IMG/VR virus record: IMGVR_UViG_3300045988_116051
Length of the DNA stretch: 41,371 nucleotides
DNA from: a virus
Strand: one strand, 5' to 3'
The position numbers were made by a program, and so were the translations under genes. Below the pieces are notes generated by a model. That model did not search any database. It was not told where the DNA came from and was given only the letters and a program-made list of their open reading frames with translations. Positions 4,917-41,371 of this stretch are shown here, piece after piece; within the stretch, counting starts at the first letter, position 1; every line of letters starts with the position of its first letter.

Positions 4917-5852
4917 TCAGTTTGGATATGGTGAGCTTACGCTCTTAAAATTCCAGCGCTGTGCCCGTTTGCAGGGCCAGCTTGGGTAAAACCAGTTATG
5001 GCTTCCGTCCCCGGCATACCACTTGTATTGCTTGGGAAGCACCCGGCCCACGTTGGTCTGCCCGGCTTTCTCCCGGCTCCAACGATCCAGTACGTCGGTG
5101 GCCAGGGCCACCAGGTCATAGCCGTGGTCACTGACTGTCGGCGCACCAGCTTTGTAATAAAACTGATTCGCCGCCAGGGCCACCGACTGGATGTTTTTTC
5201 CCATGCCCGCATCCACGCGGTTCAGGATACACCAGGCGATGCAGGCGATCTCCGTTTTGCTTTTGATGCCCCGTGCTTCGCCGTACATGATTTTTGCGAT
5301 GATGGTAGCATCGCTCTTGGTGTACCGTTTGGTAAATGCCCCCCCGCTGGAGGAGCCGGTACTTGCGCTGAGCTGTGCCGCCGTCTGGGTTTTCTCGCCC
5401 GCTGCGTCTTGTGGCTTGCTCAGGGTAGCGGCGGAACCGTTGGCGAATCGGTACTCTTTGAAGTCAATGGTGTATCCGATGTCCCCGGCTTGGTCGAGCC
5501 AATACTCAAAATTTTCTACCGTCACGGGGAGATTGAATACCTCCTGGCTGTTGTTATCCAGGTGCAGCGCCCGAAACGGGATTTTCCGTTTTCGGACTGC
5601 TTCAATGACCCGGACATAGTGCCAGCCGTTGATGCTGGAATAGGGGCGGAGGAACGAGTAGCGTTTCAGCGGGAAAAAGCTTGTGATGCTGAAGGTGGCC
5701 AATTTCATGTTACCCAGCGCTTGCAGTTCGTGGTTGATGCCGTCGAAACTCTGGTTGTCCTGGTCCCTGGAAAGCTGGATGCCCGCATTGGGCACCACCG
5801 GGAAAACCAGCACTTCTTCCTTATTGTTGTAGCTCAGAGTAAAATCCATCAA
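4917..5852 (-). CDS. Tail protein (XkdP position) with a C-terminal SleB/CwlJ-type cell-wall hydrolase domain
   Basis: MYGEARGIKSKTEIACIAWCILNRV...ANQFYY resembles the Hydrolase_2 (SleB) signature. Confidence 0.65.
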   Translation of the reverse strand: MMDFTLSYNNKEEVLVFPVVPNAGIQLSRDQDNQSFDGINHELQALGNMKLATFSITSFFPLKRYSFLRPYSSINGWHYVRVIEAVRKRKIPFRALHLDNNSQEVFNLPVTVENFEYWLDQAGDIGYTIDFKEYRFANGSAATLSKPQDAAGEKTQTAAQLSASTGSSSGGAFTKRYTKSDATIIAKIMYGEARGIKSKTEIACIAWCILNRVDAGMGKNIQSVALAANQFYYKAGAPTVSDHGYDLVALATDVLDRWSREKAGQTNVGRVLPKQYKWYAGDGSHNWFYPSWPCKRAQRWNFKSVSSPYPN

Positions 5853-7084
5853 ACCACCCCCTGGGCCACCAAAATCTTGTTGGCAATGTACGCGCCGGTC
5901 TGCTCCATAAACGCCCGGTTGCCGATCACGTTCCCTTGGATCGTCACCTGCACAGAAATGTTGTTGGCCTTCTGTTGCTTTTTCGCAACATCATGGGGGA
6001 TGATCTGCGTCCCGTTGGGCAGGTTCATGATCTCACCACGCCCGCCCTCATTCACGCGGGTCAGACCACCCCGGAAATACGGGGTGCCGGTGGCCTTGCC
6101 GCCGTTGGCGGAGAGGGAATATTGGCTCCCGTTGTTGGCAGAGCTGCCAAAGCCCAGGTTTTTCAGGCCGTTTTTGATTTTGTCGATCAGGTCGATCATC
6201 GGCTGCAAAAACTCGCGGATTTTTTCAACAGCAGACTTGATTTTCTGCTTGATCTTGTCGAACACTCCAACGATTTCGTTTTTCATCTGGACGAAAGCAT
6301 ATCCGAGCGTCAAAACGAAGTTTTTAATACCGTTGCCGAGTTTGTTGACGAAATTCCGGAAGGTCTCACTTTTCTGGTATAGCTTCACAAAAACGCCCGC
6401 CAGAAGTAAACCGATGGTAATTGCAAGACCGACCGGTCCCATCAGAGCCGTCAAACCGCTTCCTGCCAACTTAATGACGGCAATCGCGCTTTTCGCCGCC
6501 TTGACCACTGTCATGACTTTTCCTGCAATGTCCGCAACGATGGAAAGCGCAGATACGGCCGCAACGACTTTCAGGATCAGTGGGATGATGGTGTCGGCGT
6601 TTTGAATTAACGCCATGACCACCGGCTTGACGTAGCCCCAGACGGTAGAAATACCGGTTTCGATCTTCTGAATTGCCGCCGTGATCTTGTCGGAATACTG
6701 GCTCACGTCGATACTCTCGATTTTTGCCTTGAACGCCTCCGACTTCTGCATGATCCACTCCAGCGCAGACCCGGACCGGATGCTCCCGTCCTCTGCCACG
6801 CCGAACAGCTCCCACAGCTTTCCTTTGGCGATCACGCTGGCCTCGCCCAGAGTTCCCGTTACCTTTTGCATAGCAACTTCACTCTGCCGAGCTTTTACCA
6901 ACGCCTTGTTGTTTTCGTAAAACGCCGCCGCCGCCCCTTCGTAGGTTCCGGCCAGCGTTTCCATGATTAGTTTGTTCCGGGCCGCTTCACTACCGGCAGC
7001 GGCCAACTTTTCGTTAAATTTGTCTTCCGAAATGCCCGACCAGTTCAACGCATCAGCCAAAACGCCCGTGACCTGTCCAACTTT
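5849..7084 (-). CDS. Tape measure protein, exon 2 (411 aa)
   Basis: The frame stays open upstream of the track start: KVGQVTGVLADALNWSGISEDKFNEKLAAAG... It has a glycine/alanine-rich TM-like core and lies downstream of the chaperone pair. Confidence 0.8.
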   Translation of the reverse strand, partial: KVGQVTGVLADALNWSGISEDKFNEKLAAAGSEAARNKLIMETLAGTYEGAAAAFYENNKALVKARQSEVAMQKVTGTLGEASVIAKGKLWELFGVAEDGSIRSGSALEWIMQKSEAFKAKIESIDVSQYSDKITAAIQKIETGISTVWGYVKPVVMALIQNADTIIPLILKVVAAVSALSIVADIAGKVMTVVKAAKSAIAVIKLAGSGLTALMGPVGLAITIGLLLAGVFVKLYQKSETFRNFVNKLGNGIKNFVLTLGYAFVQMKNEIVGVFDKIKQKIKSAVEKIREFLQPMIDLIDKIKNGLKNLGFGSSANNGSQYSLSANGGKATGTPYFRGGLTRVNEGGRGEIMNLPNGTQIIPHDVAKKQQKANNISVQVTIQGNVIGNRAFMEQTGAYIANKILVAQGVV

Positions 7085-7319
7085 CCTTTGATACCCTCGG
7101 TTTCCCGATATTTATTAGGGGAGTAGACTATACCATCAACCACGTGGGTTGCCGATTGGTAGTCGTTGGGGGCTTCCATCATTTCTAATGGCTATCCCTG
7201 CTGATTGCCCATTGTGTCATACCCTGTACTGTTACGCTTTGGTGTCAGGGCCTTTAGGGGTTTCCAGCATATTCTCGGTTTTCTCTATACCTTTCGATAC
7301 AAAGGGCCTGTTATTGTTA
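7085..7319 (-). ncRNA. Candidate group I self-splicing intron (235 nt, no ORF) interrupting the tape measure gene
   Basis: The 5' exon ends in U (GCU|UAAC...) and the intron ends in G (...AUCAAAGG|AAAGUU). GACUA...UAGUC (P7-like) flanks a CAACC/GGUUG hairpin, with a GGUAUAGUC junction. There are three GAAA-capped hairpins. Removing it fuses the two ORFs in frame. Confidence 0.65.
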
Positions 7320-7847
7320 AGCCGTTTCATTGGTGGCCTCGATCAATCCCTCGATAGGGAGGGAATCGCCGAAGGTGCCGTTTACGCCGGCGGCGATCCG
7401 CGTCCATTTAGACACGTCCTGTTCGTTCTGGGTTAATTTGGATAAAAGCTGGGATGCCTCGGTTGCGGTGTCGGTGTCGCCCAGAATGGCATAAAATTGG
7501 CTGTACGCCTTTTGCCCTGTCTCTGCGCTGTACCCGGCGGCCTGGTAAGCCGTGTTCAGCTTACCCATGGCCTTGCGGTATTCCTCGGTGGATTCTGCCA
7601 GGCCGATAAACCCGGCAGTGATACCCGCGAACGAAATCCCAGCCAACGCCGCCGCCGCTTTCCCGATGCTCTTGATCATGTTTCCCGCGCCGGTTCGCAC
7701 CGTGCGGGAGAACTTCATGGCAGAGCTGGCACACTTGTCCATAGCCCGCCGTTGTTCATCCGTGATCTTACCAGCCTTTTTCATTTTGCTGGTGAACTGG
7801 TCGTTCAGTTTCAGGAGGATGTTAACATTCTTGTTTGCCACTGCCAA
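7320..7847 (-). CDS. Tape measure protein, exon 1 (176 aa)
   Basis: Ends ...NGTFGDSLPIEGLIEATNETA and then runs into a UAA formed by the first three intron bases. Confidence 0.8.
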
Positions 7848-9892: not shown

Positions 9893-10327
9893 TTATCCGT
9901 CCTTTCTGCTAACATTCAGCGTTTCCATCATGTCCGCTTCGTCTTCCTTCCGCAGCTGGTACGTCTCCACCGTCAGGGTAGTCCGTAACAGCATATCCTC
10001 TCTCTCGATCTCAAAGCTCACCTCGTCTGGGTAGAGGAAAAATTCATTTTCCACCACCACAGGCTCCTGTAAGGCAAGCGCAAGTTTGGCTTCCCACTCA
10101 AGCAGGGATAAATATCCCTGCTTGGTGTGTTCTGCCATGCGGATGATCTCCAACTCATAGGTGTCATGCTGCATTTCTCCCTCTCTGGAGGTGTCCATGT
10201 AGTTCGGTTGGATGTAGGTGCAGGGGACCGTAAACCCCTCGGTAATATCTTTGGTGGTCGGCGGCTCCCCGAACAGCGTTTCGATCAGGGCGGAGAGTGC
10301 CCGAATGGTATCTACAATCGTAATCAC
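9893..10327 (-). CDS. Tail completion / sheath-proximal protein (XkdJ position)
   Basis: Called by synteny only. Confidence 0.4.
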   Translation of the reverse strand: MITIVDTIRALSALIETLFGEPPTTKDITEGFTVPCTYIQPNYMDTSREGEMQHDTYELEIIRMAEHTKQGYLSLLEWEAKLALALQEPVVVENEFFLYPDEVSFEIEREDMLLRTTLTVETYQLRKEDEADMMETLNVSRKDG

Positions 10328-10755
10328 AGTTCCAACCCCTTCGACAATAATTCATCCACAAAACCTTCCACATCACGCGGAAATTCCTTCTTCAGCTGCT
10401 TCACGGTCGTGGCTGCCGGGTGTTTTCCCGGCACCATGCGGCCCGTGTTGTGCCCGTTGATCCACAGGATATGCCCATGCTCGATCAAATGGGCATGGGG
10501 CGCTTTGTTGTACACACGGATCTGGAAATCTCCGTTGTATTTCTGCACCCCAGTCCGGCGGATGCCCTTGAGCAAGTTGCCGGTCTTCTTCTTGGTCACG
10601 GCCTTGGTTTTGGCCCTCAGTTCCCTTCGGCCTTTGTTGCCCTCCCGCTTCATAAAATCCTTTGCTTCGGCGGGGTAATCTTTTTCTGCGACCTGAAACA
10701 TCCGCTTTGCCAGTTCATCCAGCTCACGGGTGTCCATTCCCTCGCTGATTCCCAC
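10324..10755 (-). CDS. HK97 gp10-family head-tail joining protein
   Basis: ...KKKTGNLLKGIRRTG...APHAHLIEHGH resembles the HK97 gp10 family. Confidence 0.6.
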   Translation of the reverse strand: MGISEGMDTRELDELAKRMFQVAEKDYPAEAKDFMKREGNKGRRELRAKTKAVTKKKTGNLLKGIRRTGVQKYNGDFQIRVYNKAPHAHLIEHGHILWINGHNTGRMVPGKHPAATTVKQLKKEFPRDVEGFVDELLSKGLEL

Positions 10756-14458: not shown

Positions 14459-16155
14459 TAAATCACCACCGCTCCCCAGTCAATGGCCTCGGAGAACATG
14501 GTGTTCTGCTGGAGCATGTAAACGGCGTTGATGAGTGCCGCCACCATATCCACCTTGCCATTCGACTTTTTCTTGTTCACATACCGGTTTAGGTTCGTGT
14601 CGAACGTACACCGGGCGTTTTCAAAATTGATCTCCAACAGTTCGTTGGGTTCGTAAGCAAATTTCCCATCGGCCACCAGCTCGGAAAGCCACTTTGTCGC
14701 CGGGTGCAACACACTGGAGTGCTGTTTTACCTCGCAGGTCACATAGGTTTCGTCCCATTTCTGGGCGGAAGAGAGGGCGTTGTATCGGTCAAACCCGATG
14801 CCCAGAACGGTCACGCCGTATTTTTCTTCCACATTGAACACAAAATCTTCCACAACCTTGTAGTCAATGGTCTTATCCCCGCAAGCGACGCACTTCCCGG
14901 CCCGGATAAACTTGCGGTAATCAATGCGCTCCGCTCGGTTCTTTTCCTCGATGCGGCCCTCCGGGATAAATGCGATCACGTCCGCGTAAACCTTCCCAGC
15001 GTCATCGTCCAGAGCCACCATAGCAACCGCTGTGTTGTCGTTGGTCATGGACAAGTCCACGCCCAAATAGACATCTCTGCCATTCCAGTCGATCTTATCC
15101 TGCTGGCAGGCGATCACATCCTGAACGGGAATGTAAGTCTCTGTCCCGACGCCCTGGTAAATGATGTTGCAGTGTTTGCACAAGAAATTCTCGCGCCGCC
15201 CCTCGACCTCAATGGCCTGCTGTCGCTTCTTCTTCAAATCTTCCATGATCTCCGGCACTTCCAGAGCCAAAGGATTCGCATGGGCAAGAATCAGGTCATC
15301 GGACATCCAGTTTGTCGGGTCATCCGGTTCATACAGCAGGGCAAAAACGCTCTCATCCTCTACCACATCATCGAGAATCTTCTTCGCATACCCGATTTCA
15401 TCCTCAAACGGGTTCTTGGTCTTCGGGTATTTGGTGGAAATCACGCACCCCAGCTTGTTCAAAATGGTAAGCTGGCCGGACCGCATGGCCTCCAAAGCGT
15501 AGGGATTCGGCAGACCGCCGACCTCATCCGCCAGGAAAACCGACGGAAGTTTGCCGTCTAGGTGTCCGTTTGAATAGGCCAGGGGATAGTAGCTGTTCTC
15601 CGTCAGGTTGCAGGTGATGGAATCCCGGAGCATTTTGAATTTCTCTTTGCCCTGATACTTCCCAACCAGGGCAGGGGAACTCTTGATGATCTCCTCAATG
15701 GCAGACTTCACTTCGCGGGACAGCGAACCGTCCGGGGCCACACTGTAAAATTTGGAAAATCTAGGCTCCGTCAGGAACAGCAGGATAAAAATTACTGCCA
15801 CCAAGAACGTCTTCCCGTTCTTCCGGGAAATCTCCAGGATAGCCGTCTGATACCGCCGTTTCTCCGGGTTCTCCCGCCAAACGACGCACAAAACTGCCAC
15901 AATGTACAGCCATTGAAATCCAACCAAAGTGTCCCGCACGGACTCCCGCGCTTTCAGGCCTTTTGCCATTACCATCAAACCGAGTAGTTTCTCGATTTTC
16001 TGGATCTTTGCCAAGTCGATCATGTATTTGTCGCTCTTGCCCTGGGCCACGAAAACAAACTCAGAGCATTGCAAGATCACGTATTTCGGGGCTTTGATCT
16101 TGCCGGAAACGACGCTCTTGGCGTACACATACGCCGGGTGATTTTTATCAATCAC
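14458..16155 (-). CDS. terL: Terminase large subunit
   Basis: 565 aa. A Walker-A-like region (ISRKNGKT) and the position after the small subunit support the call. Confidence 0.9.
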   Translation of the reverse strand: MIDKNHPAYVYAKSVVSGKIKAPKYVILQCSEFVFVAQGKSDKYMIDLAKIQKIEKLLGLMVMAKGLKARESVRDTLVGFQWLYIVAVLCVVWRENPEKRRYQTAILEISRKNGKTFLVAVIFILLFLTEPRFSKFYSVAPDGSLSREVKSAIEEIIKSSPALVGKYQGKEKFKMLRDSITCNLTENSYYPLAYSNGHLDGKLPSVFLADEVGGLPNPYALEAMRSGQLTILNKLGCVISTKYPKTKNPFEDEIGYAKKILDDVVEDESVFALLYEPDDPTNWMSDDLILAHANPLALEVPEIMEDLKKKRQQAIEVEGRRENFLCKHCNIIYQGVGTETYIPVQDVIACQQDKIDWNGRDVYLGVDLSMTNDNTAVAMVALDDDAGKVYADVIAFIPEGRIEEKNRAERIDYRKFIRAGKCVACGDKTIDYKVVEDFVFNVEEKYGVTVLGIGFDRYNALSSAQKWDETYVTCEVKQHSSVLHPATKWLSELVADGKFAYEPNELLEINFENARCTFDTNLNRYVNKKKSNGKVDMVAALINAVYMLQQNTMFSEAIDWGAVVI

Positions 16156-16597
16156 TGAGCGCTTCCGCCAACGGGTCCGCCGCGTCCTTGGTTTTCATCG
16201 AGATCACGGCTCCCAGTTTTGCCCGGTCCTGTGGGGAGAGACAAAACGCCGTACAGCCCCAACGCACGGTTGCCTCATACTGTTTTCTGGCGGACATCAG
16301 TTTGTTGTTCTCCATCAGCTCCGGGTCATCATTGATCTGTTTGTCGATCATCGCCACCCGATCAAAAGCCACGCACAGCATACCCAGGCCCTCGCTGTCC
16401 AGAGCTGAAAGCATCTCTGCTTTTGCGTAGTACCCAGAGATCCACTCAAAAATCCTTCGCTGATTCTCGTTCAGCCACTCCGGGCACTCCGGGCGTTCAT
16501 CACCCCGAAGCATCGCCTCGGTCGCAGCCCTCAAGGCCGCTTCTTGTTTCGTAGCTGCGCCGGTTTTTACAGCCGCCGCTTTCGCTGGTCTTCCCAT
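16148..16597 (-). CDS. terS: Terminase small subunit (P27-like); internal start MGRPAKAAAV
   Basis: RBS GAGGAGG 6 nt upstream of ATG 16597. The upstream part of the track ORF overlaps the HNH gene. Confidence 0.7.
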   Translation of the reverse strand: MGRPAKAAAVKTGAATKQEAALRAATEAMLRGDERPECPEWLNENQRRIFEWISGYYAKAEMLSALDSEGLGMLCVAFDRVAMIDKQINDDPELMENNKLMSARKQYEATVRWGCTAFCLSPQDRAKLGAVISMKTKDAADPLAEALSD

Positions 16598-16689
16598 TAT
16601 TTTCCTCCTCAATTTCTGGTAACTAAAAAACGTACCTAAAATATTGTCTGTAAAAGAGTGAGCAGTGCGGGCCGAGCAGTTACCCCTTG

Positions 16690-17076
16690 CTAACTCTCTA
16701 CCCACCGGGGGGGATGCTTGATAATATCCCGGAGTTCCCCTCTCCCGATCTCGCCTTTTTCTGCCATGACGTGATGAATATGGCACAGCGTAACAAGGTT
16801 ATCTATATCAGCACGCATGGAGTAGTCTTCGACCAGTGGTACAATGTGATGCACCTCCATCCGGTCTGTTAAATACCTTCCATGTTTTCCGTCATTGCAA
16901 ACACGGCACAGATGATAGTCCCTATCTAGGGCAGCGTCCCTAGCCTGATACCATGCAACTGTACGCCGGAATCTATCCAAGCGCTTATCCCTACGCCCCC
17001 ATACCCTCCTAGGTTTGGCTGGGCAGATATACCCTACTGGGTGGATGCGCCCGCAGTATTTACAACTCTGTTGCAT
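16690..17076 (-). CDS. HNH endonuclease (terminase-associated)
   Basis: CxxC ... HHIVPL ... NLVTLCHIHH motifs. It sits directly upstream of terS. Confidence 0.8.
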   Translation of the reverse strand: MQQSCKYCGRIHPVGYICPAKPRRVWGRRDKRLDRFRRTVAWYQARDAALDRDYHLCRVCNDGKHGRYLTDRMEVHHIVPLVEDYSMRADIDNLVTLCHIHHVMAEKGEIGRGELRDIIKHPPRWVES

Positions 17077-17087
17077 ATTCCCCCCGA

Positions 17088-17138
17088 ATAAAAAGAAAAA
17101 GGGGCCAGCTGCCTAACAAAACGCTAGACAGCTGACCC
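17088..17138 (-). terminator. Rho-independent terminator separating the early/tRNA transcript from the late operon
   Basis: Minus strand: GGGGTCAGCTG-loop-CAGCTGGCCCC followed by TTTTTCTTTTTATT. Confidence 0.65.
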
Positions 17139-17177
17139 CTCTCGGCCCTTCCTACCAACCGCTTATGGTAGGGAACA

Positions 17178-17331: not shown

Positions 17332-17421
17332 TGGCGGTAGGAGTAGGATTTGAACCTACGCAGGCCGTAGCCTCTACTGTTTTAGCAAAACAGCCCCTTT
17401 ACCGTACTTGGGTATCCCACC
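17332..17421 (-). tRNA. tRNA-Ser (anticodon GCU), class II with a long variable arm
   Basis: Manually folded 90 nt: acceptor GGUGGGA/UCCUACC, discriminator G plus CCA, anticodon stem CUGUU/AACAG with loop UUGCUAA, variable arm AGGC-UACG-GCCU, T arm GUAGG-UUCAAAU-CCUAC. Confidence 0.85.
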
Positions 17422-39125: not shown

Positions 39126-39422
39126 TTATCCCTCCCGTAAAACCAGCATCGTTTGCTGGTTCGATGGATTTTTCTGGATGCTTACGGCGCTGGTGAATCC
39201 GTGGTATTCCAGCATGGGGCCGTCCCTCTGGTGGATACTGATACAGTCCGGTAAATGCAGAGCAGCTCGATCTACATCCTCGATGGGAGTATCCGCAAAT
39301 ACGATCCGCAGCTCATCGTCTGCTGCAATCACGTTGTCAACGGGGTAAATTTTTCCGCCGATATCCGCATACACTCCAAAAACACCCCTTTCATCGCTGT
39401 TTTTGTTCTCCAGGATTTGCAT
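39126..39422 (-). CDS. Hypothetical protein overlapping the RT 3' end
   Basis: ORF with an internal start at MQILENK. It overlaps the RT gene by about 94 nt. Confidence 0.35.
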   Translation of the reverse strand: MQILENKNSDERGVFGVYADIGGKIYPVDNVIAADDELRIVFADTPIEDVDRAALHLPDCISIHQRDGPMLEYHGFTSAVSIQKNPSNQQTMLVLREG

Positions 39423-40378
39423 TTCGATACATGGCCGCACCAGCTGACAAAACTGGTTCGCAAATCCTCCGGCGGGATTTTTCCAGCCAGCTTTTTCAGT
39501 TTTCTGCGTTGCCTGGTAACGTTTTTCCGGCTGATCCGCCGCACGACGCCTCCGGTTTCCGTGAGGCTGAATTTTTGCTTCAGCCAGGAGAAGCCGCGCC
39601 GAAGTGGGACGATTTGCGTTTTTGTTTCATTCATTTCCACGCCAAATGCTGCCGCTTCTTGTCGAATCACTTCCAGGCAGGCGAGCAAATGCTCTTTGTC
39701 GTGATGGATGATGTAGCCATCATCCATGTAGCGCCCATAGCATTTACAATGCATCCGCTCTTTGATCTTGTGATCGAGCCGATTCGGGACGGCTAGCGCC
39801 AAATTTTGGCTGATTTGGCTGCCAAGCCCCAGACCGACCGGCCCAAACATCCCGACCAGATGCAAAATCAGGTGTTTCAGCCGTTCATCGGCAATGTAGC
39901 GCTCCAAAATTTTTACAATAGCATCATGGCTAATACTGTCGAAAAATTTGTGGAAATCATAGATCAGGATGTATCCATCCCGCTCAAATTTGCGGTAAAA
40001 CTGGTGTAAGTGCGTTTCCAGGCGTCTGAGTGCGTAGTCAACGCCTTTTCCTTTCTGACTGGCCGAGTTATCAGGGATTAGCCTCGGTCCAAGAACGGGA
40101 GTGAGCAGATTATCGCACAAACAACGCTGCACCACGCGCTCCGTGATATGCACAGAGCGGATGTGCCGATGTTTTCCACGCTCAAAAATGTCAAACTCGA
40201 TAAATCCGTTGCTTTTCCATGCGCCACTCAGCAATTTGCGTTGAGCTATGCGCACATTGATAAATGCGTTCTCTTTGTAGGCCTGGGTCGAATGTTTCCA
40301 GCCTACGCCGCGCCTACATTTTTTATAGGCGGCATACAGGTTTCCAAAAGTGAATACGTCTCCAAACTGAATTTTCAA
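39329..40378 (-). CDS. DGR-type reverse transcriptase (TTG start in the ORF track)
   Basis: RT motifs are present: FFDSISH, LGLGSQISQNLA (the SQ motif typical of DGR RTs), and catalytic YMDD. It lies 140 nt downstream of TR. Confidence 0.9.
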   Translation of the reverse strand: MKIQFGDVFTFGNLYAAYKKCRRGVGWKHSTQAYKENAFINVRIAQRKLLSGAWKSNGFIEFDIFERGKHRHIRSVHITERVVQRCLCDNLLTPVLGPRLIPDNSASQKGKGVDYALRRLETHLHQFYRKFERDGYILIYDFHKFFDSISHDAIVKILERYIADERLKHLILHLVGMFGPVGLGLGSQISQNLALAVPNRLDHKIKERMHCKCYGRYMDDGYIIHHDKEHLLACLEVIRQEAAAFGVEMNETKTQIVPLRRGFSWLKQKFSLTETGGVVRRISRKNVTRQRRKLKKLAGKIPPEDLRTSFVSWCGHVSKCKSWRTKTAMKGVFLECMRISAEKFTPLTT

Positions 40379-40518
40379 AAGGGGGAACCTCGCTGGTAGC
40401 GGATTAGCTCGAAAGCGTCCGCGTCTCGGTGATATTTACCCATGTGGGAGGGTCAGGCGCTCCTTACGCGCGTGGACTGATTTCAGCAAACGCTTACTCT
40501 GTCTCCCTACCGCGCAAT

Positions 40519-40623
40519 CCGAAGCAAACGCCGTTGCTGTTGCTGGCGTTGTTGTTGTTGCTGCTGCCGTCGCTGTTCACATTGCAAAAGTTCGTGGAGT
40601 TGGACGCATTCGGGGACGCCAAC
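40519..40623 (-). repeat. DGR template repeat TR (105 nt, non-coding, AAC-rich on the coding strand)
   Basis: Coding-strand TR: TTGGCGTCCCCGAATGCGTCCAACTCCACGAACTTTTGCAATGTGAACAGCGACGGCAGCAGCAACAACAACAACGCCAGCAACAGCAACGGCGTTTGCTTCGG. It matches VR1 and VR2. Confidence 0.9.
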
Positions 40624-40668
40624 GCGCCCGCCTGCGACCGGCAGAATTTACAGTGCCTAACCCATAGC

Positions 40669-41070
40669 TCAAAACTTAAAACGTGCCTTGTCGGATTTTT
40701 TCGCCCCGGCGATCAGGCGGCCCTCATCGATCATCAAATCCGCCCAGTGCTCCAGGGCGTGCTCACTCAGGCCGTGTTGCAATTCCATCAAAACGCTGCA
40801 TTTTCCAATCAGGGCTTGCAAGCAGTTGTTCGCCTCGATCAGGTGGTCCCGCCGCATCTGCGCTTCGTGTTCATTCGTCGGGTAGATGCTGTTCGCCATT
40901 TTGCAGTGGTTGTGCACCTCGCTGGCCAAACGGCTCAGCTCCGTCCCAATAAAAAACGTGTAGCGTTTTGGCAGTTTCATGCAGCATTTCAGCGTGTGCA
41001 GTTCCAAATCGTAAGCGGTATCCAAAAATTTGATGCCGCTTTCCTTGCGCTGGCTTTTCAATACCGACAT
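40669..41070 (-). CDS. avd: Accessory variability determinant (Avd-like four-helix-bundle protein)
   Basis: 133-aa basic helical protein located between VR and TR, the canonical DGR position. Confidence 0.75.
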   Translation of the reverse strand: MSVLKSQRKESGIKFLDTAYDLELHTLKCCMKLPKRYTFFIGTELSRLASEVHNHCKMANSIYPTNEHEAQMRRDHLIEANNCLQALIGKCSVLMELQHGLSEHALEHWADLMIDEGRLIAGAKKSDKARFKF

Positions 41071-41085
41071 TCAGGGTCCTTTCCA

Positions 41086-41107
41086 TCCGCGCCAAAGGCG
41101 GCGCGGA
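41086..41107. other. GC-rich inverted repeat (8-bp stem tccgcgcc/ggcgcgga, 6-nt loop) 16 nt downstream of the target stop codon; cruciform/hairpin of the kind associated with DGR target recognition
   Basis: Base pairing read directly. The position between the VR1 gene stop and the avd start matches the arrangement described for the Bordetella phage BPP-1 DGR. Confidence 0.6.
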
Positions 41108-41122
41108 TTATTTGATTTTAGC

Positions 41123-41371
41123 TTAAACGCATAAGCCGAAGCAAACGCCGAAGCTGTCGCTGGCGGTGCTGCTGGCGCTGCTGCTGCCGTCGCTGTTCAC
41201 ACCGCAAAAGTACGCGGAGTTGGACGCATACGGGGACGCCAACCAGTACCACTGTGCAGAGCCGCCACCGTTGTTCATTTTTTTGATCCGGCTGGCATTG
41301 TCCGTAAAAATCGGGTACTGCCGCGCATTGCCCGTCGTGCGCTCCGTGGCCGGTGAGTAGCTCGATTCGCC
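41123..41371 (-). CDS. C-terminal end of the same tail-fibre gene (373 aa in the circular molecule), carrying VR1
   Basis: Same frame as 1..1014 once the 141-nt overlap is collapsed: ...WYWLASPYASNSAYFCGVNSDGSSSASSTASDSFGVCFGLCV*, stop TAA at 41125..41123. Confidence 0.85.
   Translation of the reverse strand, partial: GESSYSPATERTTGNARQYPIFTDNASRIKKMNNGGGSAQWYWLASPYASNSAYFCGVNSDGSSSASSTASDSFGVCFGLCV
41136..41243 (-). repeat. DGR variable region VR1 (108 nt)
   Basis: Aligns to TR 40519..40623. There are 13 substitutions, all at TR adenines on the coding strand, plus one extra AGC codon. Confidence 0.9.
41231..41371. repeat. Terminal direct repeat, copy B (identical to 1..141)
   Basis: Same 141-nt string as the window start. 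Confidence 0.95.

Follow-up and report, generated by a model that had tools for sequence, protein, structure and literature searches.

Introduction

Group I introns that interrupt the tape measure protein (TMP) gene were described by Tourasse and Kolsto in 2008 in prophages of the Bacillus cereus group, where they occupy three sites (TMP-IVS1, IVS2 and IVS3a/b) (PMC2504315). Here we analyze IMG/VR virus record IMGVR_UViG_3300045988_116051, a 41,371-nt stretch of DNA (the whole of which is hereafter called the window) from a temperate, contractile-tailed gut phage of about 41 kb, in which a 235-nt element on the minus strand, 7319..7085, splits the TMP gene. We assign to it, with a probability of roughly 0.92, the identity of a compact group I intron without an open reading frame (ORF) and a predicted self-splicing role; this confidence covers the identity and the splicing role, and the mobility of the element is a much less certain matter.

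The B. cereus introns resemble the window intron in that they interrupt a prophage tape measure gene, some of them are without a complete homing endonuclease gene, related introns (80% identical) are found at different TMP sites, and intron-plus and intron-minus alleles coexist (PMC2504315). On the other hand, they are introns of class IA1/IA2 hosted by lambda01-like Bacillus siphophages with TMPs of more than 1200 aa (PMC2504315), whereas the present host, a gut Clostridia phage with a PBSX-like contractile tail, has a 587-aa TMP and an intron without P7.1/P7.2. Compared by description, they differ also in their guide sequences, since both sites of the window lineage keep one guide, whereas those of IVS1 and IVS2 have diverged.

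A second group comprises the introns of Twort TerL (orf142), P100/A511, Romulus/K-like and SPbeta-type phages, which likewise sit in essential late or replication genes of Firmicute phages and share the AACGACUA P7 strand and the P4-P5 core with the window intron. Twort-type introns are experimentally established self-splicers, and the crystal structure of the Twort intron is known. The J8/7-P7'-P9 module of the window intron is 90–97% identical over 40–59 nt to the Twort TerL, P100, SPbeta-type, Romulus DNA polymerase and PH15 terminase introns. Many introns of this group carry endonuclease ORFs, unlike the window intron, and in Twort about 87 nt, taken as the P7.1/P7.2 domain, lie between P7 and J8/7, as against 29 nt in the window intron. 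Since the module is shared but this interval is so much shorter, the window intron is a stripped-down relative of the classic Firmicute-phage IA introns. In a comparison of the intron 3' end (7085-7145, minus strand; J8/7, P7' and P9 with the AAUAAAUA internal loop and a GAAA hairpin) with 262 deposited phage genomes, this module had a nucleotide identity of 90–97% with introns from phages of Staphylococcus, Listeria, Enterococcus, Bacillus, Brochothrix, Lactobacillus and Clostridia, and the rest of the intron had diverged to about 65–70% or was undetectable; judged from these alignments, the 3' end is conserved well beyond what pairing alone requires.

The td, nrdB and nrdD (sunY) introns of T4 are also self-splicing group I introns located at conserved sites of phage protein-coding genes, with an in-frame stop near the 5' end (PMC3984707). 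The nrdD intron has a further parallel in the Lak megaphages, in which members of the present family are likewise found in nrdD. Unlike the window intron, those of T4 are of larger size, possess P7.1/P7.2 and either contain endonuclease ORFs or did so in the past. Finally, nuclear rDNA introns resemble the present case in that related introns occur at two nearby guide-complementary sites of one gene (Bhattacharya et al. 2005, PMC1299323), and such neighbouring-site introns are the classic circumstantial argument for spread by reverse splicing (PMC1299323). Those introns lie in eukaryotic structural RNA genes, whereas the target here is a phage protein-coding gene, with a 12-nt in-frame shift and four lineages only.

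Intron-less alleles define the splice junction in the tape measure gene

The interrupted gene consists of the following parts.

7320..7847, minus strand: exon 1 of the tape measure gene, 176 codons with a TTG start, ending ...NETA with GCU, final base U at 7320; PHROG 23464 positions 155-270
7085..7319, minus strand: group I intron, ORF-less, 235 nt; identified by a full-length RF00028 match, model R1 and intron-less alleles
5849..7084, minus strand: exon 2 of the tape measure gene, 411 codons plus stop, beginning AAA GUU (K V G Q V T G...); PHROG 23464 from position 271

The minus-strand ORF 7847..7317 terminated in ...PIEGLIEATNETA followed by a UAA stop, and the frame of the minus-strand ORF 7060..5849, for which a TTG start is annotated at 7060, stayed open upstream to 7084, reading KVGQVTGVLADALNWSGISEDKF / KVGQVTGVLADALNW... 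over this extension. Excision of the 235-nt spacer joined GCU^AAA in frame (^, junction) and gave a 587-aa TMP (7847..7320 + 7084..5849) with no internal stops. The ORF boundaries, the spacer length, the in-frame join and the length of the fused protein were therefore as the initial annotation had proposed, and so were the U at the end of exon 1 (7320) and the G at the end of the spacer (7085). Its description of the spacer as free of ORFs was right in that stop codons occur in all three frames, but one 45-aa ORF overlaps it: an ATG ORF at 7182..7045 (minus strand), the sole ORF touching the spacer, begins in the intron and spans the 3' splice site. Automatic pipelines annotated this ORF as a gene in two other assemblies of the locus (L002 and L135), where the callers divided the TMP into 176/174-aa, 45-aa and 403-aa genes. 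The 45-aa ORF looks like a by-product of the intron sequence and not a genuine gene.

Comparison with uninterrupted homologues, which the initial annotation had named as a check, revealed one continuous protein and not two proteins with the same boundaries. A public protein encoded by a continuous gene (P0001, 587 aa) matched the predicted spliced product along its entire length with 100% identity, and about 40 further protein clusters (585–587 aa) were 97–99% identical to it; two 403-aa clusters, P0046 (85 members) and P0049 (14 members), corresponded to the exon-2 ORF of other intron-bearing copies. At the DNA level, eight intron-less loci (L001, L003-L005 and L136-L139) lacked precisely 7319..7085, and the boundary could not be slid in this alignment, the bases flanking the gap being different. 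Since the intron-less alleles lack exactly this segment, the splice boundary and the terminal G are unambiguous. The exons of these sister phages were 96–97% identical to those of the window. More distant TMP homologues (53–74% identity, including those of an Agathobaculum prophage and an Acutalibacteraceae phage) were also continuous across the junction and gave no match to the intron covariance model R1 described below. The intron interrupts the most conserved motif of the TMP, and the PHROG 23464 profile ended on exon 1 at position 270, resumed on exon 2 at position 271 and covered the fusion without interruption. Precise excision recreates a TMP allele that exists in nature.

The spacer contains a full group I fold

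Intron position i corresponds to window position 7320 - i on the minus strand. The elements of the secondary structure model, in which every listed pair is a standard pair, are as follows.

7305..7323, minus strand: P1, exon GGCU (7323..7320) and U1 paired with guide A11-GGCC15 (7309..7305), with a U.G wobble at the 5' splice site
7311..7319, minus strand: in-frame stops UAA CAA UAA, intron nt 1-3 and 7-9, ending exon 1 translation at the intron border
7284..7303, minus strand: P2, nt 17-24/29-36, 8 bp with a GAAA loop; compensatory changes in 8/8 pairs, 92% of cells paired
7275..7278, minus strand: P3 5' strand, nt 42-45 CCGA, pairing with 165-168; 96% of cells paired, compensatory changes in 4/4 pairs
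7170..7269, minus strand: P4-P6 domain, P4 51-56/116-121, P5 61-63/110-112, P5a 69-74/94-99
7170..7269, minus strand: P6 part of the same domain, P6 122-124/148-150, P6a 129-134/139-144 with a GAAA loop
7160..7166, minus strand: P7 5' strand (guanosine-binding helix), A154, bulged C155 and G156-A160 GACUA; core invariant
7152..7155, minus strand: P3 3' strand, nt 165-168 UCGG, 4 nt (CCAA) after P7
7137..7151, minus strand: P8 hairpin, nt 169-173/179-183 CAACC/GGUUG, loop CACGU; 98% of cells paired, double changes in 5/5 pairs
7125..7136, minus strand: J8/7 AUGGUA (nt 184-189) and P7 3' strand U190-U195 UAGUCU
7094..7120, minus strand: P9 200-202/224-226 enclosing P9a 212-215/220-223 with a GAAA loop
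7085..7087, minus strand: omega-G, G235 at 7085 after A233-G234; A233-G234 may pair with C197-U198 (7123..7122) as P9.0

A full group I fold is present, with P1 to P9, the P3/P7 pseudoknot and a guanosine pocket with its bulge in P7. The motifs pointed out initially all have a place in it. The GGCC at nt 12-15 pairs with the exon GGCU, the exon GGC with the guide GCC and U7320 with G12 as the U.G at the junction; GACUA (nt 156-160) and UAGUC (nt 190-194) flank the CAACC-CACGU-GGUUG hairpin (nt 169-183); and the three GAAA-capped stems lie at 21-24/29-32 (extendable to 17-24/29-36), 129-134/139-144 and 212-215/220-223. The GGUAUAGUC at J8/7-P7 is also present and was invariant in the seed alignment of the family. 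P7 is formed by 156-160/190-194 together with A154-U195 across the bulged C155 (98% of cells paired), and the latter pair covaries (A-U 57, G-C 17, U-A 2). The pair G156-C194, adjoining the bulge, is the predicted guanosine-binding site, which we take to be homologous to the G264-C311 site of Tetrahymena. The in-frame stops at the start of such introns are viewed as keeping ribosomes off the folding ribozyme (PMC3984707).

With only CCAA between P7 and P3', the intron lacks the P7.1/P7.2 helices known from subgroups IA1/IA2; in sequence, its core and P9 are IA-like all the same. No homing endonuclease gene was found within the intron, the 235 nt having stops in all frames and every segment being taken by ribozyme helices. 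The internal loop between P5 and P5a (CCUAAAG / AAUGG) was considered as an 11-nt GAAA receptor, but the similarity is only partial and we make no such claim.

Covariation in a family of compact phage introns

A BLAST search of the intron against deposited phages matched spacers that split DNA polymerase, Pol III alpha and terminase genes, as well as a locus without annotation in Lak megaphages. A hand-checked seed alignment showed compensatory changes in P2, P3, P4, P6 and P8. From this alignment we built covariance model R1, in which P7 was left unpaired owing to the pseudoknot, and searched with it 80 IMG/VR loci retrieved by the motif GACTACCAA-N12-42-TGGTATAGTC; the invariance of the P7 core partly reflects this way of selecting loci. 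R1, which scored the window intron at 283 bits, yielded about 80 full-length relatives of 190–300 nt in viral contigs. In the resulting alignment 92.5% of 4147 cells were standard pairs, compared to 34–45% when the 3' partners were slid by 1–3 columns, and compensatory (two-sided) changes occurred at 52 of 53 pairs. The fraction of paired cells reached 99%, 99% and 98% in P4, P5 and P6, respectively, with many double changes, and was weaker in P5a (77%). Of the 86 family sequences, 78 had U.G as the splice-site pair, and the remaining four pairs of P1 covaried. At the other end of the intron, the 3' tails were too variable in length for P9.0 to be traced through family alignment A3, omega-G being aligned in only 35 of its 96 rows.

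The genes split by these relatives code for DNA polymerase, terminase, NrdD and TMP, and their products, once fused as predicted, matched the corresponding profiles continuously. Nearly all members of this compact family are ORF-less; embedded endonuclease ORFs were seen in Twort (IepA), CS266P4 (an I-HmuI-like ORF) and EH93P1. Among the about ten closest members, five lie in TMP genes at no fewer than two motifs, one in a tail protein gene, two in NrdD genes and several in DNA polymerase genes. Since nearly all of the family is ORF-less and five of the closest members are in TMP genes, an ORF-less TMP intron is typical and not unusual for the family. The view expressed initially, that a TMP intron without a homing endonuclease is uncommon, has to be given up on this ground and also in view of the B. 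cereus-group prophage cases known since 2008 (PMC2504315).

A search of viral contigs for the junction pattern CGGCTTAACAA-N2-6-GGCCC gave 80 loci, of which only L132 and L206 were real additions; about 75 were ordinary gene ends (TAA stop plus terminator hairpin) and not introns. Lak megaphages also carry a family member (660-913 of L006, Prevotella phage Lak-B1, MK250020.1, and L071), located in an NrdD-like anaerobic ribonucleotide reductase gene directly after ...YDRIIG near the C-terminal end, in a record where it is unannotated. The family extends from 40-kb temperate gut phages to Lak megaphages, with TMP genes as a favoured target, and is a large one of compact ORF-less introns in uncultured phages.

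Match to the Rfam group I model and its calibration

The Rfam group I model RF00028, also suggested as a check by the initial annotation, matched the minus strand end to end (model 1-253, window 7329..7104) with 41.5 bits under permissive filters, corresponding to E = 2.7e-9 for the region and, with both strands of the whole window searched against all 4227 Rfam families, to 2.3e-7; it was the sole intron match in the window. At the gathering threshold, no intron match was obtained on the whole window, and the match appeared only when permissive thresholds were set. The gathering cut-off of 50 bits is, however, an annotation convention and not a biological criterion. The intron of Twort TerL, a known self-splicer, gave no RF00028 match at E <= 0.01, and scores elsewhere were 27.9 bits for the Listeria P100 intron, 34–47 for the Brochothrix ADU4 introns and 63.3 for L030, a relative in another TMP gene. 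Phage introns receive too low a score from the generic model, and the cut-off of 50 is a poor guide for them; it missed the window intron plus several relatives, and the compact family for the most part. The z-score of the folding energy was −2.1, which together with the RF00028 E-values and the intron-less alleles speaks against a chance resemblance.

Other copies of the window intron

The same intron was found at the same site in three more independent assemblies (L002, L135 and L141), about 96% identical to that of the window; a search with an intron-internal 22-mer had given one extra copy in JGI metagenomes (L141) and none in IMG/VR. The 9–10 differences among the copies fell in loops or junctions (nt 60, 80, 84, 87, 151 and 178) or kept the pairing (35 G>A opposite U18, 69 G>A opposite U99, and 75/92/93, which re-pair P5a), with the exception of nt 73 U>G, which gives a G-A mismatch with A95 in the drawn P5a register. 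This substitution pattern among the four copies suggests selection on the RNA fold and speaks against a dead relic.

Alleles and insertion sites of the intron lineage

Intron-plus and intron-minus alleles shared local exon backgrounds. The window was identical to the intron-less L003, and the intron-bearing L141 to the intron-less L001, over about 77–90 nt of exon 2 save position +3. There the four copies with the intron all had A, and the three haplotypes without it all had G (AAA vs AAG). Markers at −4, −10, −27 and from +25 on occurred in all combinations across the alleles. The +3 pattern agrees with exchange at the DNA level in which only a very short tract was co-converted, or with one origin and frequent recombination thereafter, as far as can be read from these alleles. 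We also considered the G at −4 as an intron-linked exon adaptation for P1; this was ruled out, because the intron-less L136-L139 also carry ACGGCT.

The introns closest to that of the window were 75–78% identical to it and were located in IMG/VR contigs as follows.

L028 (with L132 and L206), 10242-10481: closest-relative intron in a TMP gene
L085, 5974-6228: closest-relative intron in a TMP gene
L041, 8270-8524: closest-relative intron in a TMP gene

The TMPs hosting them were only 31–34% identical to that of the window, and their insertion lay 12 nt (four codons) upstream of the window site, within the same conserved motif (...E-A-A^N-E/H-T... in the relatives, ...N-E-T-A^K... in the window). 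The 5' exons of the two sites were nearly alike (GAAGCGGCU in the relatives, GAAACGGCU in the window), the 3' exons were unrelated, and the guide GGCC was unchanged at both. Each TMP matched the guide, ending in U, at just one of the two sites; the unmatched sites read GAGGCCACC upstream in the window, and ACAGCC (L028, L041) or ACCAUA (L085) downstream in the relatives. The shift of 12 nt occurred without duplication or deletion, which homing does not explain, because homing copies an intron to the homologous position. Site choice by P1 pairing, as in a reverse-splicing model, would explain the shift, and the observation is suggestive only.

Splicing, spread and alternative explanations

The window intron is, judged from its sequence, a genuine group I intron of an already known sort, with a junction confirmed by intron-less natural alleles, and is predicted to be catalytic. 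In the proposed mechanism, the late mRNA would be transcribed through the intron, and ribosomes would halt at the UAA opening it, leaving the RNA free to fold. Exogenous guanosine bound in P7 would then attack after U7320, and the freed exon 1 would attack after G7085, so that GCU^AAA is joined and the 587-aa TMP can be made. In the absence of a homing endonuclease, the intron would probably be gained and lost within the population by homologous recombination between intron-plus and intron-minus genomes, the phage encoding ERF and SSB. Its arrival at the window site, 12 nt away from that of its closest relatives, would be accounted for best, though with far less certainty, by a target chosen for its match to the internal guide sequence, namely a transposition of the reverse-splicing type.

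Several points weigh against the assignment or against parts of it. The RF00028 score of 41.5 is below the curated gathering score of 50; the covariation alignment was fitted to the R1 model, which inflates the pairing counts somewhat, although model fitting would not produce so wide a gap to the slid controls; P3 has only 4 bp; the candidate two-pair P9.0 rests on one compensatory case, L085; and no convincing P10 was found, the exon 2 AAAGUU failing in every register to pair with the bases 5' of the guide, and none was found in L028 either. A dead relic, that is, a group I descendant that no longer splices and leaves the TMP broken and the phage without functional tails, would be compatible with the sub-threshold Rfam score, the short P3 and the missing P10. 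We nevertheless regard it as very improbable, since no core helix is disrupted and the invariant nucleotides of J8/7-P7 are kept, both exons are open throughout and encode a protein 100% identical to that of the intron-less allele, the same intron recurs in four independent assemblies with its substitutions in loops or pair-preserving positions, and the assembly closes into a complete circle in which every structural gene is undamaged. That the TMP is made as separate 176-aa and 403-aa proteins, with the 235 nt serving as an intergenic structured RNA or regulatory region, agrees with the automatic gene calls in L002 and L135 (176/174-aa, 45-aa and 403-aa), but is hardly credible: homologues at 53–100% identity are single continuous proteins across the junction, one profile (PHROG 23464) crosses it without a gap, the break falls inside the most conserved TMP motif, and the spacer has the group I fold and the splice-site nucleotides. 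The proposal of an intron splitting the TMP gene has, on the other hand, found support from the model match, the covariation, the splice-site nucleotides, the continuity of the profile and the intron-less alleles.

Granted a real group I intron, its route of spread is a separate question. How group I introns without an endonuclease move is experimentally unresolved (PMC3984707), and the literature evidence for spread by reverse splicing is circumstantial and of the same two-site kind (PMC3984707, PMC1299323). The lineage could have moved between sites 12 nt apart in the NETA motif of divergent TMPs if its unchanged GGCC recognised GAA-N-CGGCU and the intron reverse-spliced into the TMP transcript, cDNA being made and recombined thereafter; we consider this scenario doubtful, with the odds well against it. 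The association of +3 A/G with the intron fits co-conversion or a single origin, not repeated reverse splicing, and the two-site argument, which is suggestive only, rests on just four lineages. Arrival or spread through a homing endonuclease acting in trans (collaborative homing) or recently lost, in place of guide-directed reverse splicing, is possible though on balance unlikely. It would account for the strict tie of the +3 A to the intron on several exon backgrounds, which resembles a short co-conversion tract; family members with embedded endonuclease ORFs exist (Twort IepA, CS266P4 and EH93P1), collaborative homing is documented in phages (PMC3984707), and two HNH-type domains are encoded in this genome. 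On the other hand, neither the intron nor the adjoining sequence contains an endonuclease gene, the HNH gene of type PF01844 stands directly upstream of TerS, the usual place of a packaging HNH, homing to a homologous position fails to explain the precise 12-nt shift without duplication or deletion, and the two sites share the guide-pairing 5' exon and not the 3' exon. If the reverse-splicing scenario is true, the locus would provide rare evidence that a group I intron has transposed at the RNA level in a protein-coding gene of a phage, together with a matched pair of natural sites for testing guide-directed transposition. The intron-plus and intron-minus sister phages and the two sites sharing one guide match form a small natural system for mobility without an endonuclease. 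For the splicing role itself, the consequence is practical: TMP length is used to predict tail length, so unrecognised introns of this kind corrupt phage annotation.

Genome setting and neighbouring features

Nucleotides 1-141 of the window were identical to 41231-41371, indicating a circularly closed assembly with a true size of about 41,230 bp; a minus-strand tail-fibre ORF spans the window ends. The genome encodes an integrase, a PBSX-like contractile tail module (sheath, tube DUF2001, chaperone, TMP, M23 peptidase and baseplate), ERF, SSB and a reverse transcriptase, and the neighbours of the TMP gene are those for the tail chaperone, tube, sheath and a LysM/hydrolase-type protein. A scan of genome contigs with the single TMP gave no match, and with an alignment it gave only the 53%-identical Agathobaculum prophage. 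The host is probably a gut Oscillospirales member, to judge from these distant relatives only.

No endonuclease gene was found at the locus, in or beside the intron. An HNH endonuclease (PF01844) is encoded at 16693-17076 (minus strand), directly upstream of and overlapping the small terminase ORF (Terminase_4, 16151-16786, minus strand), a placement typical of packaging-associated HNH proteins and not of a homing enzyme. The genome also codes for another nuclease domain, HNHc_6 (E 2.6e-23), at a position that falls outside 1.1–16.1 kb. In one of the intron-less loci, L138, positions 2146-2943 hold an extra 265-aa ORF between the large terminase gene and the small ORF preceding the portal gene, which L136, L137 and L139 do not have; it has no Pfam hit on record and may be a mobile insertion.

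A gut-2 RNA (RF02990, 45.8 bits, above the gathering score; 17128-17175, minus strand) and a tRNA-Ser(GCU) with a long variable arm (17332-17421, minus strand) form a pair a short distance upstream of the genes for the HNH protein and the small terminase. This tRNA at 17.3 kb had been considered as a suppressor with a CUA anticodon, and ARAGORN identified it as an ordinary tRNA-Ser(GCU).

A diversity-generating retroelement (DGR) occupies 39332-41243, with an RVT_1 reverse transcriptase (39332-40378, minus strand) adjoining a pair of repeats, 40511-40623 and 41128-41243, that are 79–86% identical. Nearly all of their mismatches fall where the 40.5-kb copy has T on the plus strand (A on the coding strand), and the 41.1-kb copy is at the 3' end of the tail-fibre gene. 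The DGR reverse transcriptase and ERF/SSB are conceivable helpers of a reverse-splicing transposition. Between the reverse transcriptase gene and the template repeat, at 40340-40511, a sub-threshold match to the Rfam RT-2 RNA was observed (34.5 bits, cut-off 40).

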